Virus record (IMG/VR): IMGVR_UViG_3300029935_000002 | Coordinates: 4,397-68,396 of that record | Length of the DNA: 64,000 bases | Reading direction: 5' to 3' (one strand) | From: a virus | Shown here: in pieces, positions 3,745 through 23,214 of the stretch | How the letters are laid out: each line of letters starts with the position of its first letter | Position numbering within the stretch: position 1 is the first letter of the stretch | Notes under the pieces: generated by a model | The model's database searches: none | What the model was told of the DNA's origin: nothing | Seen by the model: only the letters and a program-made list of their open reading frames with translations | Made by a program: the position numbers and the translations under genes

Positions 3745-4857
3745 TTAGAACGAGGGTGCCTTGCCTTCCAGCAAAGAACGCATGATGTCACCTACATCAG
3801 GACCCTTATTCTTACCAGCAGACTTCATGGCGCGAACACTCAAAGTCGAAGGATACGCAATCCCGTTAAAATAGAACGTGACTTGTTCCCATTCAGGATC
3901 GACCACAGCAACGATCATGGCGTAGGTATTCTCAAGGATCTTCTCACGACCCTTAGGATCTTTAAAGCGATAGCCGACTTTAGCTTCAATGGCGGCTGCA
4001 GTATCCTTCGACAGGATGTAGATATTGCTTGCAGTGGCCAGAGAGGGATTCTTGGTCAAGAGTCCGTAGGTGCGGTTATTGTTAACGCGACGCACGATCT
4101 CATTCAGTGTACCCGTCTTGTCCTTAATTGCAGCACGACGATATTCATTGATCAGATCTTGACAGAAGATCATGTCACGAATAAATGAGATACGACCTGC
4201 TCGCCATGCATGGTAACGCTCTACCATCCCAACGTCCATCTTGCGATGGGTGAAGATGTGTGAAAGAGATTCTTCATTAAGCAAGGCAGGAGACAAACGA
4301 ACACTGACCGGGACATTGACCGTTTTTGACTTACCATCGTCAGTAGGAACTGAGATACTAACATTAATTAGCTTACCCACCGCAAGATTGGCGGTTTCGT
4401 AAATAGTCTTGACGTTGGTGGAGTCGTAACCTGCGTTGTCTTGTGCTTCTACAGCCATAACTGACTTTGTCGGCAAAGAGAACTTATAGTTTTCAGAGAT
4501 CAGATTCTGAATATTCTCATTAGCATAACGACCACCCAGAAGAAAACCCGTTGAATCACGATCAGGATTCAGACGATCCAAGATACGAACAACTTCGATA
4601 TCGTTGATGGTGGTGAGCATCGAGACTGCTTGCAAGAAGTAGCCTGAGTAGATGCTGGCAACGTTATTCAGAAGGTCAGGAAGATACTCCAGGTTCGCGC
4701 AATCGTGTGAAATGATCGTCAGGGGTTCGGCTCGGGTGAGCTTGGTGATCGAAGTCAATGACTGGTCTGTAAAATGACCAGCGACATTATTCTTAAAGTA
4801 GTCCAGCGCCTTAGACACAGCGGTGAGCGTAGCGTTGGTCGTCGTCACTAAGTCCAT
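3745..4857 (-). CDS. Putative inner-body head protein (phiKZ gp89-like position, 370 aa)
   Basis: Position, size, AVE-A site, divergent from baseplate pair. Confidence 0.5.
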   Translation of the reverse strand: MDLVTTTNATLTAVSKALDYFKNNVAGHFTDQSLTSITKLTRAEPLTIISHDCANLEYLPDLLNNVASIYSGYFLQAVSMLTTINDIEVVRILDRLNPDRDSTGFLLGGRYANENIQNLISENYKFSLPTKSVMAVEAQDNAGYDSTNVKTIYETANLAVGKLINVSISVPTDDGKSKTVNVPVSVRLSPALLNEESLSHIFTHRKMDVGMVERYHAWRAGRISFIRDMIFCQDLINEYRRAAIKDKTGTLNEIVRRVNNNRTYGLLTKNPSLATASNIYILSKDTAAAIEAKVGYRFKDPKGREKILENTYAMIVAVVDPEWEQVTFYFNGIAYPSTLSVRAMKSAGKNKGPDVGDIMRSLLEGKAPSF

Positions 4858-16402: not shown

Positions 16403-17770
16403 CTAAGTGATCACGCTTGCTAGATTCATCTCTTCCGTAACAAGCGCTGTATTGTGCATGAGCTTTAGACTGTCTGTCAAAATACCACCACTGACCTCCA
16501 TCAACGGGATAGGGAGACCTGTGGGAAATTTAGACAGTGCTTTTCCGGCACAGACTTCGCAAGTCTGTGTACCTAATCTTCTACAGTATTGAGGGCTTCT
16601 AACAATAAGATTTTGAGAAGCATAAGGTTTTGCTTGATCGATGGTTTCAATCAAGACTGGCTGCCCCTTCACAATCAAGTATCGTCCTACGATATTAGAG
16701 AGCTCTTTTTCAGTATAGAATCGACGAATACCGAGCTGACTTCCACAATCGCCTTCGGTGATTCGCCAATTATCAGCTGCGCGCATTAGTGCTTTAGCAG
16801 TTACACCACCATTAACAGTCTCAGAGCCTCGAGAGAACGAACCATATCGAATTGTATTTGAGATCGCTGTAAAGCCTTCTTCGTCGAGCGGAATCCCATC
16901 TTCAAGTGCGTTGATAATGGGTGTTACTGTCATGCTCTGAACAAAGCTATTAGACTCACCACCTTGAGTCATGTAAGCTTTCATTCGAGAATTGGCTACC
17001 TTCCCACTCATGAACTTACCATAAGAAGGATCTTTCTTAATGTACTCTGTATCGAAAGCTTTAAGTTCAGCTTCGAACTTGGCCATCTCTACAGGGTCAT
17101 GAAGTTTGCCTTCATACTTCTTTAAGAGTTCCTTCTTAAACTCTTTTCGACCGGGTGCTGGAAGAAGACCAATCTCCGTGATCGAGTGCGTAAAGATCTG
17201 ACTAAGGGTTTCAAGGAAAGAAACCCCTTCACAATACTTAAGATATTCATCAACATAGTAAAGAGAAGGATCTTTAGCTTGACCTTGTTTAGGGTTACTT
17301 TGAAGTTTTAAAGCAATTTCATCTTCAAGTTTACGGGGGCTAAATGAGCCAGCCTTATAAGGAAACTTCTCTCCAAAGGCTTCATAGAGACAAATAAGGT
17401 TTACTAGAAGTGTTCCGATAGATGTTTCTAGTTTTGCTTCATTTAAAGACGGAACCCAGTCAGGCGTGATGACAATCCGGTCTTTAACATGGAAAAGAGG
17501 CTGATTTAACGGACGATCAGATTTAATCTGGACCTTCTCACCGTCTTCTGTATAGGTAAATAGACCAAAGGGTTCTCGGATCAGTTTACCTGGATATTGC
17601 TGCTCTCTTTGTTTTTCGGTTTCTTGCGTAACAGCAAAGCAACTAATAATCCAAGCTTTCTTCTTATAGTTCTTATTCTGGATACTAAATTGAAGATACT
17701 CGTTTGGCGACATCTTGAGCCTCTTGATAGTGGTGAAGTTCATTGAGGAGCGCACCCATCTGAGTCTCAA
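16403..17770 (-). CDS. RNA polymerase beta-prime-type subunit (virion RNAP, phiKZ gp80-like; true start probably 17713, MSPNEY)
   Basis: WRITEGDCGS and VRSPQYC...TCEVCAG Zn-binding motifs of the beta-prime C-terminal region. Confidence 0.8.
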   Translation of the reverse strand: MRLRWVRSSMNFTTIKRLKMSPNEYLQFSIQNKNYKKKAWIISCFAVTQETEKQREQQYPGKLIREPFGLFTYTEDGEKVQIKSDRPLNQPLFHVKDRIVITPDWVPSLNEAKLETSIGTLLVNLICLYEAFGEKFPYKAGSFSPRKLEDEIALKLQSNPKQGQAKDPSLYYVDEYLKYCEGVSFLETLSQIFTHSITEIGLLPAPGRKEFKKELLKKYEGKLHDPVEMAKFEAELKAFDTEYIKKDPSYGKFMSGKVANSRMKAYMTQGGESNSFVQSMTVTPIINALEDGIPLDEEGFTAISNTIRYGSFSRGSETVNGGVTAKALMRAADNWRITEGDCGSQLGIRRFYTEKELSNIVGRYLIVKGQPVLIETIDQAKPYASQNLIVRSPQYCRRLGTQTCEVCAGKALSKFPTGLPIPLMEVSGGILTDSLKLMHNTALVTEEMNLASVIT

Positions 17771-18572
17771 TGCGCATGCGTTGTTCGCTATCTAAGACCA
17801 AAGACTCACTATAGGTCCGATAGATTTGTAAGGGGTCTTGATAGGTGTCTTGCGCCATCAAGAATAAAGACAAAAGATTCTTAGCGCTTTGAACATCTTC
17901 TTCTACGATCAAGTATTCCCTAACATAGGGGTAGTAGAGCTTGATTGGATGCCCGATCGAGATCCCGCTTTGAATAAATTCAAAGGCAAGATTGTCTTGA
18001 CCACAGATCGAGAAGAAGTCTTTTAAGTTTGACTGAATCTGATTTAAAAGGCTAGGATCAATTTCAGGTTCTTTTTCTTCCCTATCTTCCTGAGCATAGA
18101 GGAAAGATTGAAGTTGTTCAAGCGTTGAAGGGTGAATGCTTTCAATTGCGACGAGGACAGAAGCTTCATCGAGTTCACTATAGACTTCAATAATCTTAGC
18201 GATCTTTTCTTCATCTGAAAAGGAAGATTCTAGAATTCTTAAGACAGGAACAGCATCTTCAAGCTGCTGAAGACGGAAAAGCACAGACAGAATCTGATTC
18301 TTAGTGCTGAGCTCAACATTTTCACTCAAGTCAATTTGATGTGCTTTAAAGATAACGTCAACTTGTTCATGAATAGCTGACAAGAACTTCAGTTGAGTGA
18401 GGTCAGTGTTATCTGCATCAATGTCTAAGACAATATCAGGAAGATGAACATAAGCTTGACGATGTTCAAATGCATCAAAGAGTGAAAAACTATTTTGAAT
18501 CTCAGCTTGGAGTTCTTCTGAGAATGTCTGAGCAATGTAGCCGTGGACTACATCCATGAGGTCTTCATCCAT
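17685..18572 (-). CDS. Conserved hypothetical protein (295 aa)
   Basis: Long acidic helical ORF co-oriented with RNAP subunit. Confidence 0.6.
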   Translation of the reverse strand: MDEDLMDVVHGYIAQTFSEELQAEIQNSFSLFDAFEHRQAYVHLPDIVLDIDADNTDLTQLKFLSAIHEQVDVIFKAHQIDLSENVELSTKNQILSVLFRLQQLEDAVPVLRILESSFSDEEKIAKIIEVYSELDEASVLVAIESIHPSTLEQLQSFLYAQEDREEKEPEIDPSLLNQIQSNLKDFFSICGQDNLAFEFIQSGISIGHPIKLYYPYVREYLIVEEDVQSAKNLLSLFLMAQDTYQDPLQIYRTYSESLVLDSEQRMRIETQMGALLNELHHYQEAQDVAKRVSSI

Positions 18573-18749
18573 GACCTGAAACCTTTTTTATCTGAATGTG
18601 TGAAAAATCTTAGAAGTTGCTCAATCTGTATGAACGCGAGTCGGCGCGTATCCGACAGTAGACCATACGACAACTTCATCAGTTTGCCACACGATTGTTG
18701 GCATCTCTTTAAATTCTTTTTCAATTTATTTTAGTAGGAGCCTTAGATC

Positions 18750-19301
18750 GTGGCAAAACGAAACAAACATACTCTGACATCTGAAGAAAATGTGAAGATG
18801 CTGTTTCCTAAGCCGGTAGCGGCAGTGGTTGGTGATCTTTTTCATAATGCACCTCAGACGATTGTGACTGAAGGGGATCCGAATAATATCCCTAAGCAGT
18901 CATGGGAGCAACTGTCCGATATCTCGATTGCCATTGGTGAAAGTATCGCACAGATGGCCAGTGATATTCATACTACCGTCGAAATGGTTAAACAACTTGG
19001 CTGTGACCATATTCGTGAGTTTAATGCGGTTGTTGAAAAGACCAATAATGATTTTCAAAAGTTTATTGTGGATTATGAAAAGATTCGGGCACGCCATATT
19101 GGAAAGTCGGGCTTTATTGAATCCAGTCAAGATCTAGCACTTTCACTATCTGTTTTTGAAGACTATCAGCAGTTCCGAGCGTTCTTCGATGGCGCAATGC
19201 ATCACACGCTGATCTCCTTTACTGAATACGCCCTTGAAGCAAAAGACCGCGCACTTAAACTTCAAGCCGAGCAAGCAGAACAATCTGAAAAGAGCGAGTA
19301 A
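18750..19301 (+). CDS. Hypothetical protein (183 aa, GTG start)
   Basis: AGGAG RBS, coupled to next gene. Confidence 0.65.
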   Translation: MAKRNKHTLTSEENVKMLFPKPVAAVVGDLFHNAPQTIVTEGDPNNIPKQSWEQLSDISIAIGESIAQMASDIHTTVEMVKQLGCDHIREFNAVVEKTNNDFQKFIVDYEKIRARHIGKSGFIESSQDLALSLSVFEDYQQFRAFFDGAMHHTLISFTEYALEAKDRALKLQAEQAEQSEKSE

Positions 19302-19304
19302 GTA

Positions 19305-21047
19305 ATGACTGAACATACCCAAGAATCTAACATGGTAAATACAACTAATCAAGAAACGGTTGTAATCAATAACCCTGAACTTTCTCCTAAGAATATGCCT
19401 GATCCTTCTGATCACGATGACAACTTTGTACTTGAGGAAGTTCTTGAGCAAAGTAAAGAAGTAAAAGAAGAGAAAGTAGAAGTACCTGAACCCGTTGTTC
19501 AAGAACAGAAGGTTTCTAAACCTGAAGAGATCGAAACACTTGATCAGTTCTTAAGTGAGTTTGAAGATAGCTATAATCTTCCAGATCAAAAGAAAACTGC
19601 AACACAGTCTTACGCAACATCGACATCGGATAAAATCGGTTCCCCTGACACCGTCTCTATCCCTCCAACACCTTGGCGCGATGCTGATTCGTTAATTAAA
19701 CGCCTGCCGAACGCCATGGATTTCACCATGAGCGCACCTCAGCGTAAATGGATCGAGTCTCTTCAGTATGGTTTCCAAGGCAATAGCTCACTTGACGATG
19801 TCTACTCGGACCGTCTTGCTGAAGAAGGATCAGACTTTAAACAGCACGTCGAATACAACGGTAATACTTATCGAGGTCGCGCGCCTGTCTTTAAGCGTAA
19901 ACCCGGTTCACGTGAGATTGATGGCGAGAACGCACTGATTCAGCTGGTGACACACTTGGGCGTAGGTGGTCTTTTCCGTGCACCCTTGTGGAATACTGGA
20001 ATGTGGGTGACCTTTAAGCCTGCTACTGAAACAGAGCTTTTAGAACTGAATCGCCTCCTGCACAAAGACAAGATCCGTATGGGTCGTATCAGTCACGGTT
20101 TGGCGCTGTCGAACTATGTTGTCTATTCGGTCGAACTGGTCTTTGACTTTGCATTGCGTCACGTCTATAACACCAGTATTCGTTCTGAAGAACTCCCTCT
20201 GAACAATCTAAGGGATTGGATTTCGCCTCAGGATATCAACAGTTTCATTTGGGGATTCTTGTGCGCTAACTATCCTTCAGGTTTCCATTACATGACAGGG
20301 TGTGTCTCAAACCCTGTGAAGTGTAATCACGTTATCGAAGAGACGTTAAACGTTACAAAGCTTCAGTGGGTCGATAATAGTGATTTGACGGATTGGCAAA
20401 AGCAACATATGTCTTCAATGGCAGCCAATAGTAAGTCGCTCGATAGCCTTAAGCGCTATAAGGAAGAAATGAAGCGTGTACAAGCACGCCGTATTATTCT
20501 TCATGAAGGCACGAAACACGAATTGGCAATTACGCTCAAGACTCCGACGGTAACCGATTATATCCAGCAAGGACATAACTGGATCGGTGGAATCATCGAA
20601 AGCGTTAATGCTGCATTGGGTTTTGATGCCAATGATTCTGAACGTGAAGCGTATGTTAACACTGTCGGTAAAGCCACGACCTTGTGTCAATATAGCCACT
20701 GGATCGATTCAGTTGAATACGGTGAAATTACTGAAAGACCAGATAGTGGTGAAGAAGCCAGTAAGAACGTTATTACTGATCGAGATACCATTGATGAAAC
20801 TTTGAAACTTCTGAGTTCAACTGACTCAATCCGTGAAAAGATCATCGATGAGATTGTTAAGTATATTAATGACTCTACAATTTCAGTAATTGGTGTTCCG
20901 TCTTTTGATTGTCCTGCGTGTGGTCAATCTCAAGACCTTGAAAACATCTATCCGCGCCATACTTCAGTGATCCCCTTGGATGTGCTTAACGTTTTTTTCG
21001 AATTGATCTCTCAGCGAGTCACACGGATCGTTTCGCGCACGCGGTAA
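19305..21047 (+). CDS. Conserved 580-aa protein with C-terminal CPACG; putative tail/baseplate assembly chaperone; frameshift donor
   Basis: Acidic N-terminus, PSFDCPACG, slippery T TTT TTC at 20993-20999. Confidence 0.6.
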   Translation: MTEHTQESNMVNTTNQETVVINNPELSPKNMPDPSDHDDNFVLEEVLEQSKEVKEEKVEVPEPVVQEQKVSKPEEIETLDQFLSEFEDSYNLPDQKKTATQSYATSTSDKIGSPDTVSIPPTPWRDADSLIKRLPNAMDFTMSAPQRKWIESLQYGFQGNSSLDDVYSDRLAEEGSDFKQHVEYNGNTYRGRAPVFKRKPGSREIDGENALIQLVTHLGVGGLFRAPLWNTGMWVTFKPATETELLELNRLLHKDKIRMGRISHGLALSNYVVYSVELVFDFALRHVYNTSIRSEELPLNNLRDWISPQDINSFIWGFLCANYPSGFHYMTGCVSNPVKCNHVIEETLNVTKLQWVDNSDLTDWQKQHMSSMAANSKSLDSLKRYKEEMKRVQARRIILHEGTKHELAITLKTPTVTDYIQQGHNWIGGIIESVNAALGFDANDSEREAYVNTVGKATTLCQYSHWIDSVEYGEITERPDSGEEASKNVITDRDTIDETLKLLSSTDSIREKIIDEIVKYINDSTISVIGVPSFDCPACGQSQDLENIYPRHTSVIPLDVLNVFFELISQRVTRIVSRTR

Positions 21048-21451
21048 ATATAGGCGATTACCGATTTGCTTCAGTTGAAAAGACCGTTGACTTTATTAAC
21101 GAGATGGTCAGTAAACTACCTCGTCTAAGTCGAGTTGATGCGCAAATTGTGATGAGTGATTATTACGATGTGCGTTTTGGTCTTTTCAATCACGCTGAGA
21201 GTAAAGCACGGCCTCTTTCATCGGTTGCAATGTTCCCTTGTGAAAACTATACAGAGCGAGCCCCTTTGTATGATGCTTATAAGGAATACGCTGAAAGAAA
21301 TTATAAGGAGATCTGGGGACTTTCTGTTAAAGAGTTTCTAGATCTTCCGCAGTATATTGTTCGAATGATGCGCTCCATTACAGTTGACATCATGGCTTCT
21401 AAAGAAAGTGCAATCCATGAAGTAGAACAAAGTATGGGTATTAAAAAATAA
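20990..21451 (+). CDS. -1 frame ORF (ORF track 21104..21451), probable frameshift-fused C-terminal extension
   Basis: Frame opens after TAA at 20987-20989; no convincing RBS at ATG 21104; SVKEFLDLPQYIVRMM resembles tail chaperone T/gp51-type segments. Confidence 0.65.
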   Translation, partial: RFFRIDLSASHTDRFAHAVNIGDYRFASVEKTVDFINEMVSKLPRLSRVDAQIVMSDYYDVRFGLFNHAESKARPLSSVAMFPCENYTERAPLYDAYKEYAERNYKEIWGLSVKEFLDLPQYIVRMMRSITVDIMASKESAIHEVEQSMGIKK

Positions 21452-21460
21452 GTGATGATG

Positions 21461-21492
21461 ACAGAGGACTCGGCTAATGCCGAGTCCTCTGT
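21461..21492. terminator. Bidirectional terminator-like hairpin
   Basis: ACAGAGGACTCGGC-taat-GCCGAGTCCTCTGT between convergent genes. Confidence 0.75.
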
Positions 21493-21504
21493 TTATGATG
21501 TCAT

Positions 21505-23214
21505 TTAACCATTAACCGACTCACCTACAACAATCTTATCTTCATACTGCTCTGTCGTTCTAGGGTGAACAATGACCCCTGTAACCTGAACAGAAGGACG
21601 AATCCTTCGTTTAGCTTGAAAATATTCTCTCACTATTGATTCTGAGATATGGTCTAGGAAACGTTTTTTGTGCCCATTAGGCCAAGCATCAATGTTGTCA
21701 TATGGGAATGTCGGGATTGGTGAACTTGGACCAAAGCCATTAGTGCGGGTTCCACCTGACAATACTCGATAGATAGCTTCTAGCTCCCATTTCTCGATAT
21801 GTTTCTTATGTGCTAAACTATTAAAGTCAGGATCAATCTTTAATAATTCATTAATCGCACCAAGTACTTTAACTAAAACGTTTGGATACTTACTCAACCG
21901 ATCAAGTGCTGGTTGAATGGCCATGCTGATTTCAATCAACATCGAAACCCGAACATGATAGACACGCCGAAGATCAAGCGGTTTCTTTGAACGTAAAAGT
22001 AGATCACTTGTTAATTCAATCTCAATATCGTTAATCGGATATTCATCTCGATAAACACTAATATAAAAGAAAGAATGGAAGAGTTTAGTAGTATAGGGCG
22101 CTTCTAATTTTAGGAAGTTAAGGATATCTGAGTCGATCTCATAATCCCCGAGATCCTTTAAATCCATCAAAGTATGTTTATCATCTTCAATGAAACATAG
22201 TGCAGTCAAGACGGTTGCTGTGCCAGGTGCCGTTGTTTCCATCTTAAAATCATCAAAAGACGGAAGCGTAATATACGGGTAGGGTTCTCGAGTTGCCATA
22301 GCAATATGATCCCCTTCAAACATACTTAATGCCTCATACGACTTTGAGTAATACTTATTTTGAAAATAGGGATCTGGTTCACTCTGGATATGATTCAGAT
22401 ACTTCTCAGGAAGTAACTGGTTATGGACACTAATGGGGTAATGTAAATAAACCGCATCCGGTCTTTGATAGCTGAACTTATAGCTAAATGAAAGCTCCCA
22501 TGTTCCTGTTGCGTCATCTCTCGTAGGTGCTTCAGGGACACCAACAAAATCAAAGAACCCTTGAATTCGTGTTTGCTTCTCTGAGATAGCGAGATGTCGC
22601 ATTTCACCAGCACGATTTGCTAGGATCGTTAAACGATCTGAAGCGTGTTTTTCAAAGTAATCTTTGAAGGATTCTTGATAGCCTTCTACTTTTTCTCTAA
22701 GGCTCCAGACATCCTCTATAAGCCCTACAAAGGGATAAGGTAAGGGGTAGGTATACTTGACGTCATGTAAACTGATGTCACGGCCTCTAGCGGTCTTTAA
22801 AAGCATCTCCGCCATCCACCGTCTCACCTCTGTCTCACTAGGTGAACGATATCGGATATTGATGACGACATCTGAAGTTGTGTAGATTGGTCTTAAAGAA
22901 AGTTTAAGTTTACGATCTTCAAAGACAGGTGAATGTTCAAAAGCATGAACAAAGGTTTCTTGTACAGCATCAATTGCATACTTTTCATCGACATCAATAA
23001 AAGTATAGCGATCTGACCCAAAGCGCGCATCTTTTACATTAAGATCATCAATGCTTGTTCCTGGTGACTGAATCACATTTCTTTTACCCGCATAATAAAC
23101 ATGTGTTTCTTTAGAGAGTTGAGTGATCTCACAGATTTGATCTAAGATAGAGAAGATCACAGGACGCGCGACAGACTGTTCAATGTCTGCAAGTGTTAAG
23201 CTTATACTTGGCAT
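21505..23214 (-). CDS. Virion structural protein, possibly neck/tail (569 aa)
   Basis: Long beta-rich ORF downstream of MCP; function inferred from context only. Confidence 0.45.
   Translation of the reverse strand: MPSISLTLADIEQSVARPVIFSILDQICEITQLSKETHVYYAGKRNVIQSPGTSIDDLNVKDARFGSDRYTFIDVDEKYAIDAVQETFVHAFEHSPVFEDRKLKLSLRPIYTTSDVVINIRYRSPSETEVRRWMAEMLLKTARGRDISLHDVKYTYPLPYPFVGLIEDVWSLREKVEGYQESFKDYFEKHASDRLTILANRAGEMRHLAISEKQTRIQGFFDFVGVPEAPTRDDATGTWELSFSYKFSYQRPDAVYLHYPISVHNQLLPEKYLNHIQSEPDPYFQNKYYSKSYEALSMFEGDHIAMATREPYPYITLPSFDDFKMETTAPGTATVLTALCFIEDDKHTLMDLKDLGDYEIDSDILNFLKLEAPYTTKLFHSFFYISVYRDEYPINDIEIELTSDLLLRSKKPLDLRRVYHVRVSMLIEISMAIQPALDRLSKYPNVLVKVLGAINELLKIDPDFNSLAHKKHIEKWELEAIYRVLSGGTRTNGFGPSSPIPTFPYDNIDAWPNGHKKRFLDHISESIVREYFQAKRRIRPSVQVTGVIVHPRTTEQYEDKIVVGESVNG

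Follow-up and report, generated by a model that had tools for sequence, protein, structure and literature searches.

How do ribosomes reach the open reading frame (ORF) that follows a 580-amino-acid (aa) gene in this viral DNA, when that ORF occupies the -1 frame, runs without a stop from a stretch of seven T near the 3' end of the gene, and offers no ATG, GTG or TTG from that region until ATG 21104? The DNA in question, called the window throughout, is a stretch of 64,000 nucleotides (nt) from IMG/VR virus record IMGVR_UViG_3300029935_000002 (positions 4,397 to 68,396 of the record); it belongs to a giant phage, uncultured and nucleus-forming, and encodes chimallin, and the 580-aa protein belongs to the family of phiKZ gp77. 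A first-pass annotation of the window, made from its letters, had proposed that programmed -1 ribosomal frameshifting joins the 580-aa protein to the next ORF. The comparative evidence gathered here strongly supports this proposal and finds the arrangement conserved in Chimalliviridae, and we put the probability that programmed -1 frameshifting joins the two at about 0.85.

In the mechanism that we favour, most ribosomes would read UUU UUC through and terminate at 21045-21047, which would give the 580-aa protein with a C-terminal helix in its last 18 residues, while a minority would slip back by 1 nt with tRNA-Phe in both the P and the A site on U_UUU_UUC (20993-20999). Both tRNA-Phe would then re-pair on UUU UUU, and reading would resume in the -1 frame at CGA 20999, adding a conserved helical domain of 150 residues to yield a protein of 715 aa; the slip ratio would set the stoichiometry of short to long product. 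The anatomy of the site, its conservation and the coding status of the sequence beyond it are shown below; the slip itself, its efficiency and the function of the protein are inferred.

The slippery site and the reading frame beyond it

At the site, frame 0 reads AAC GTT TTT TTC GAA, which places a heptamer of the X_XXY_YYZ type in phase with the ORF at 19305-21047 (the features are collected in Table 1). The TAA directly 5' of the heptamer shuts the -1 frame upstream, and therefore the -1 ORF can be entered only at or after 20990; the frame-0 stop comes 15 sense codons past the heptamer. The first-pass annotation had read the heptamer, this TAA and a stop-free -1 frame as far as 21451 from the letters, and the sequence bears all three out, as it does two further statements: that ATG 21104 lacks a spaced Shine-Dalgarno (SD) sequence (AACGAG abuts the ATG, so that a GAG is present but at zero spacing), and that the fusion would be about 715 aa long (residues 1-565 plus 150, with the predicted junction ...NVFF/RIDLSASH..., where the slash marks the slip). 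Given the density of stops in the -1 frame within the 580-aa gene, 0.137 per codon, the chance of a stop-free run of at least 36 codons up to ATG 21104 is about 0.005. ATG 21104 is probably an internal codon, at which some independent initiation is possible.

Table 1. Features of the frameshift locus, with positions numbered along the window
Feature	Position	Strand	Remarks
Frame-0 ORF, 580 aa (P0001)	19305..21047	+	Short product; phiKZ gp77 family (phrog_4585); CPxCG motif at residues 536-540
TAA of the -1 frame, directly 5' of the slippery site	20987..20989	+	TAA or TAG kept in close relatives
Slippery heptamer T_TTT_TTC (X_XXY_YYZ)	20993..20999	+	On invariant Phe564-Phe565; proposed -1 tandem slip site
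Dual-coding overlap	20999..21047	+	Frame 0: C-terminal helix ELISQRVTRIVSRTR then stop; -1 frame: start of the extension RIDLSASHTDRFAHAV
-1 coding region after the slip, 150 aa, stop TAA 21449-21451	20999..21451	+	All-helical domain, phrog_12109
Start-less stretch, from frame-0 stop to first canonical start	21048..21103	+	Coding in the -1 frame
ATG, first of the -1 frame	21104..21106	+	Gene callers' start for a 115-aa ORF; poor SD
Perfect 14-bp hairpin with 4-nt loop (TAAT)	21461..21492	.	10 nt past the stop of the -1 ORF, between convergent genes

The T7 run is real. The identical run is found in an independent contig that is 96% identical to the window (L003) and in five further contigs (L023-L027; 81-86% protein identity), which retain a -1 TAA or TAG just 5' of it. 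Contigs from sequencing runs of different studies (three of DNA, one of an RNA library) also cover the site with no insertion or deletion, a check made on assembled Logan contigs, in which minority transcripts, transcript ends and expression level are invisible. A megablast of the locus against GenBank phages returned no near relative. The sequencing error that the first-pass annotation had named as a danger to its own proposal is thus contradicted by L003, by L023-L027 and by the run contigs, all of which have the same run.

The pattern of substitutions changes frame at the heptamer. Comparing the window with L003, we found that all eight differences in the 40 nt 5' of the heptamer are synonymous in frame 0, and that none of the eight differences in 21029-21103 alters the -1 protein; two of these eight (21031 and 21034) fall within the overlap, where they alter the frame-0 product, and the start-less stretch 21048-21103 itself has six differences, six of them -1-synonymous. 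An alignment of seven close sequences gives the same picture segment by segment: 71 of the 93 variable columns upstream of the heptamer are at frame-0 third positions, the heptamer has no variable column, the 48-nt overlap has 11 with no codon periodicity, as expected because dual coding should give none, and -1 third positions account for 12 of the 18 variable columns from the frame-0 stop to ATG 21104 and for 73 of the 102 after this ATG. Moreover, the match to PHROG 12109 becomes better and extends upstream of ATG 21104 once the -1 frame is translated from 20990, and tblastn matches in FLC9, FLC1-1B and RP12 start at residues 16-20 of that translation. The start-less stretch 21048-21103 is protein-coding in the -1 frame.

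Conservation of the two-frame arrangement in the gp77 family

The phiKZ gp77 family (phrog_4585) is present in 218 GenBank phage records and in every chimallin-encoding jumbo phage examined. For comparison we assembled 31 sequences, made up of 20 named phages and metagenomic relatives including the window's own clade; 21 named phages were retrieved, and RTH11 was omitted from the counts over the 31 sequences. The named set includes phiKZ gp77, PhiPA3 gp074, 201phi2-1 gp136, RAY gp267, Goslar and SPN3US, and eight further metagenomic loci came from seven relatives at 34-59% identity.

All 31 sequences have the downstream ORF in the -1 frame, with no stop from an invariant Phe-Phe pair near the C-terminus of the gp77-like protein onwards. 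This pair is coded T_TTT_TTN in 25/31 (T_TTT_TTC in 14, T_TTT_TTT in 9, T_TTT_TTA in 1 and T_TTT_TTG in 1). The 31 include the orthologues of phiKZ, 201phi2-1, SPN3US, RAY and Goslar that the first-pass annotation had advised checking. T_TTT_TTC is invariant in the seven close and in seven more distant metagenomic relatives, and the codon before the TTT of the heptamer ends in T in 25 of the 31. The P-site codon is TTT despite the rarity of TTT elsewhere in the same gene, for example in Xoo-sp14 (0/14), SURPRISE13 (0/17), PhiPA3 (2/21), RP12 (2/18) and FLC9 (2/13). Naive products of probabilities, indicative only, come to 1e-15 for TTT, 1e-13 for a preceding codon ending in T and 1e-22 for the open -1 frame. 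As judged from these comparisons, the synonymous sites at the heptamer are under selection.

Whatever the position of its first start codon, the -1 peptide aligns across relatives from just past the slip site. Measured from the upstream stop, the first canonical -1 start lies anywhere between -141 and +219 nt, and in phiKZ, AgentSmith, L028 and pEa54 between 120 and 219 nt of conserved -1 coding sequence precede the first start codon; in phiKZ-like phages the conserved block DxRxSRL...DPNGHV...FG lies 5' of any ATG, GTG or TTG. The frame-0 tail past the slip site is also conserved in distant phages, and the two-frame arrangement is retained among phages at only 20-30% protein identity. In phiKZ itself (NC_004629) ORF 076.4 is annotated as an 80-aa protein starting 219 nt past the gp77 stop, and the -1 frame is open and conserved through all 219 nt back to the T_TTT_TTT site of gp77 (L005 2751-3212).

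The nucleotides immediately past the site show patterns of their own. The first -1 codon past the slip (20999-21001) is CGN (Arg) in 11/12 of the window's wider clade, and most phiKZ-like phages have TAC or CAC (Tyr or His) followed by Pro as their first -1 codons. The frame-0 helix accounts for part of this pattern; the 'TTC G' context is strikingly constant.

Could the locus instead be two ordinary genes, the T run merely coding an essential Phe-Phe and the downstream gene starting at ATG 21104, or at a non-canonical codon such as ATA 21050, by re-initiation? Gene callers and all GenBank records have it as two genes, ATG 21104 does exist, some relatives have starts at or near the junction, and Phe-Phe is invariant. 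At the same time, this explanation has to account for a stretch, 21048-21103, that is coding in the -1 frame without an ATG, GTG or TTG, for the longer start-less coding sequences of phiKZ, AgentSmith, L028 and pEa54, and for start positions that are not conserved, while the -1 relation and the openness from Phe-Phe hold in 31/31, TTT is chosen against codon bias, and the T that ends the preceding codon recurs as described above. We consider two independently started genes distinctly improbable.

The frameshifting reading has several points weighing against it. The naive probability products ignore phylogenetic relatedness, and with Phe-Phe invariant in the protein the T-richness is partly protein-forced. 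Six of the 31 sequences have an imperfect P site or a shorter run (five are G/A_TTT_TTY, and pVa-21 is A_CTT_TTT). Start codons also occur close to the junction in a few relatives: at the stop in RP12, a TTG at -3 in 201phi2-1, an ATG on the heptamer in L035 and an ATG at -135 in RAY. Folds of the sequence 3' of the heptamer (61-146 nt, in the window and five relatives) were no better than those of shuffled sequences (z 0.48, -0.33) and none was shared, and RNAalifold on 12 relatives predicted 0 pairs.

Two of these points deserve a closer look. The fold of the region 3' of the heptamer, in which the first-pass annotation had hoped for a stimulator, gave none, and neither a downstream stem-loop or pseudoknot nor an upstream SD-like element was found at the site. 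With no conserved downstream structure, the slippery heptamer alone would be the apparent signal. Stimulatory elements are not obligatory at phage frameshift sites, and sites of the lambda G/GT type work without strong stimulators. As to the starts near the junction, gp266 of Erwinia phage RAY is annotated from an upstream -1 ATG with a 136-nt overlap (L008 2538-3086), and metagenomic L035 (3096-3575) has its ATG exactly on the slip site, TCA TGT TTT TTC. The extension may have an independent start in some lineages, for example in RAY and L035.

We rank transcriptional slippage, in which phage or host RNA polymerase would add one U on the T7 run and so give rise to two mRNA species, as the main rival of ribosomal frameshifting, and we judge it improbable. 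It can point to the site being a homopolymer of 7-8 T in most relatives, to the record of Xanthomonas phage RTH11 being off by one T, which shows the run to be error-prone for polymerases or sequencers, and to the unusual multisubunit RNA polymerases that these phages use. Against this, the run is only 5-6 T long in Noxifer, PS119XW, pVa-21, D6, PhiPA3 and FLC9, which is short for efficient RNA polymerase slippage, while an A-site slip on U_UUY is still possible. Moreover, all 14 sequences of the window's clade end the run with TTC and do not lengthen it, and the RNA-library contig has T7 without an indel, contigs being blind to minority species.

RTH11 (OQ790161.1, L019 2816-3048) is an apparent exception in the family, with one T fewer than expected: it reads ACG ATT TTT TTA CCC as compared with ATT TTT TTT ATC in its relative LucasX. 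Its annotated 627-aa ORF goes on in a frame without homology, and the two remaining frames hold the true C-terminus and the extension. The missing T of RTH11 is due either to a sequencing error in the homopolymer or to genuine variation.

No relative was found in which the two parts are fused in one frame. When proteins of 319-1015 aa were searched, all 113 gp77-like proteins were 332-597 aa long, with no in-frame fusion among them. An exhaustive search with the -1 domain returned 405 cluster representatives, and the best 150 of these 405 were all at most 303 aa, again with no fused single ORF. The called N-termini of these best 150 scatter from query residue 2 to 81, which looks like the signature of gene callers choosing arbitrary internal Met codons. 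All GenBank records examined annotate two separate genes at the locus.

These searches also bear on the possibility that the split is an artefact or a product of decay, that is, a homopolymer sequencing error or a recent mutation that split a single gene of 715 aa. Homopolymers are error-prone, and the one-base difference in RTH11 falls on the same run. This explanation is opposed by the same run length in independent assemblies of different studies, by the maintenance of two frames across phages sharing so little identity, by the lack of a single-ORF form among the 113 gp77-like proteins and the best 150 of 405 -1-domain homologues, and by the conservation of the frame-0 tail itself past the site, and we hold it to be extremely improbable.

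Gene neighbourhood, protein fold and possible role

Synteny is strict in the window (17685-23214) and in all relatives: a gp79-like gene is on the minus strand, and after it come three plus-strand ORFs in the order gp78-like (small), gp77-like and -1. The gp78-like ORF of the window (18750-19301, with a GTG start) has no PHROG match. Convergent to the -1 ORF is a gene at 21505-23214, phrog_3289 in the window's clade. The hairpin between the convergent genes was not called by a consensus terminator scan, and its T tract is weak; from its position and sequence it is probably the end of the transcription unit and a terminator for both directions. Neighbours in the window encode a gp79-like head protein, RNA polymerase beta, the major head protein, DnaB helicase and DNA polymerase, and the first-pass remark that the gene is far from any tape-measure gene agrees with this company of head, RNA polymerase and replication genes.

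An AlphaFold2 model of the 580-aa protein (54 homologues; predicted local distance difference test score, pLDDT, 78.5; predicted template modelling score, pTM, 0.79) has its 72 N-terminal residues disordered and places Phe-Phe where the last helix (residues 560-577) begins; therefore the long form would swap that helix for the extension. The -1 domain was modelled at pLDDT 79.9 as all-helical with a long final helix, a confident fold that counts in favour of the frameshift. A BFVD search with this domain matched only its own uncharacterised orthologues, and VIA-align wide gave only generic helical matches (Z of at most 5.5).

Searches of Pfam, NCBIfam and PDB sequences for a function gave nothing above threshold, the matching PHROGs are of unknown function, and Foldseek with the model of the 580-aa protein against PDB and AFDB Swiss-Prot returned noise only. 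In BFVD, some ten entries of the T4 type named 'baseplate hub assembly protein/chaperone/subunit' matched weakly (expectation value, E, 3e-4 to 5e-2; template modelling score, TM, by target 0.5-0.58; predicted models). In the atlas, clusters near the 580-aa protein have PF12322 in 14-24% of members, with row 4 at TM 0.45/0.48 and PF12322 in 14% of members (predicted models). The motif C536-P-x-C539-G, nearly invariant in the family, aligns with KCPECG at residues 190-195 of T4 gp26. At the level of sequence, P0001 has no Pfam match to PF12322 (T4_baseplate), which reached E 0.1 in 2/54 homologues, and a scan of the phage record for PF12322 gave no match, which carries no information because the control genomes gave none either. 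With hhalign, the family profile against the single T4 gp26 sequence scored 6% probability, with only the short CPxCG stretch aligned; against T4 gp51 and gp25 no alignment was obtained, and the -1 domain showed no relation to gp25. The first-pass comparison with the T4 pair gp26/gp51 is therefore upheld in part, by weak but repeated fold matches of the gp26 type, while membership of that family is not seen in sequence.

From these models we regard a gp26-like assembly role of the gp77-family protein as plausible, with the odds about even. If it were true, the locus would hold the first case of a gp26-like baseplate-hub assembly factor with an isoform produced by frameshifting. Two observations from other phages touch on this protein. 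The records of 201phi2-1 gp136 and gp135 lack the note 'identified by mass spectrometry' that gp138 has, which is a hint only. The Churi orthologue, gp256, is among hypothetical proteins seen in proteomic experiments and was tested as an early-expressed candidate (PMC11849849).

Among the core proteins of chimallin-encoding jumbo phages is the gp77-family protein, whose locus is split in all records into a gene of about 530-650 aa and a small downstream gene with an arbitrary start. A search of the literature on phiKZ gp77, Chimalliviridae, SPN3US and jumbo phage frameshifting, with subscription journals outside its coverage, found no description of frameshifting at this locus, which would be a further case, in a new gene family, of a recoding mechanism already known. 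If the frameshift is real, a long product of about 690-715 aa is absent from proteome databases, mass spectrometry search spaces, knock-out designs and structural models, and the annotation of a core gene would be corrected in more than 200 genomes. It would also open an uncharacterised protein, probably one with a part in assembly, to experimental tests, and add a recoding site that, with no obvious stimulator, has been conserved over very deep divergence (20-30% protein identity). A more tentative idea, and in our view an unlikely one, is that the frameshift is a family-wide tunable switch and not a device with a fixed ratio, with the slip rate on the bare U-run modulated in the course of infection by phage ribosome-binding proteins (e.g. 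phiKZ gp14) and with isoforms in different roles; if true, this would be phage-controlled recoding tied to the nucleus-forming life cycle.

Comparison with known recoding systems

The closest parallel in layout is with lambda gpG/gpGT, P2 E/E+E' and Mu, where ribosomes slip by -1 on a heptamer towards the 3' end of a phage gene and so make, in a fixed ratio, a short protein and one with a C-terminal extension. As with lambda-type sites, no strong stimulator would be needed here, the two frames are conserved and not fused, and the role is probably in assembly and not that of a virion component. Unlike in lambda G/GT, there is no relation of sequence or fold, the short protein has 580 aa as compared with about 140 aa, the proposed heptamer is U_UUU_UUC and not G_GGA_AAG, and the gene has head, RNA polymerase and replication genes as its neighbours, where lambda has those for the tail tube and the tape measure. 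Position, a roughly fourfold difference in size and the lack of any chaperone match in Pfam or NCBIfam speak against a lambda G/GT-type chaperone. The first-pass description of the pair as the 'G/GT equivalent' is not supported as family membership, on grounds of position, size and family; what is left of it is an analogy of mechanism and perhaps of role.

T4 gene 26 is alike in having two products per gene (26 and 26' are annotated) and a CPxCG motif near the C-terminus, the KCPECG of gp26 standing 13 residues before its end (NC_000866, L036 4803-5429). It differs in that 26' is made by internal initiation, not frameshifting, and in that gp26 has 208 aa. The E. coli dnaX gene (tau/gamma) likewise uses a -1 frameshift on a homopolymeric heptamer to make two isoforms at a set ratio; there, slipping makes the shorter isoform, and the site is flanked by an SD-like element upstream and a stem-loop downstream, neither of which was found here.

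In phage T7, gene 10 (10A/10B) has a -1 frameshift at G_GUU_UUC. The site proposed here resembles it as a U-rich slip on Phe codons near a stop, where the two frames overlap briefly and the longer product would be the minor isoform. The 10B extension adds about 50 residues to a capsid protein, whereas the slip predicted here would add a folded domain of 150 residues to a non-capsid protein, at a site found family-wide.

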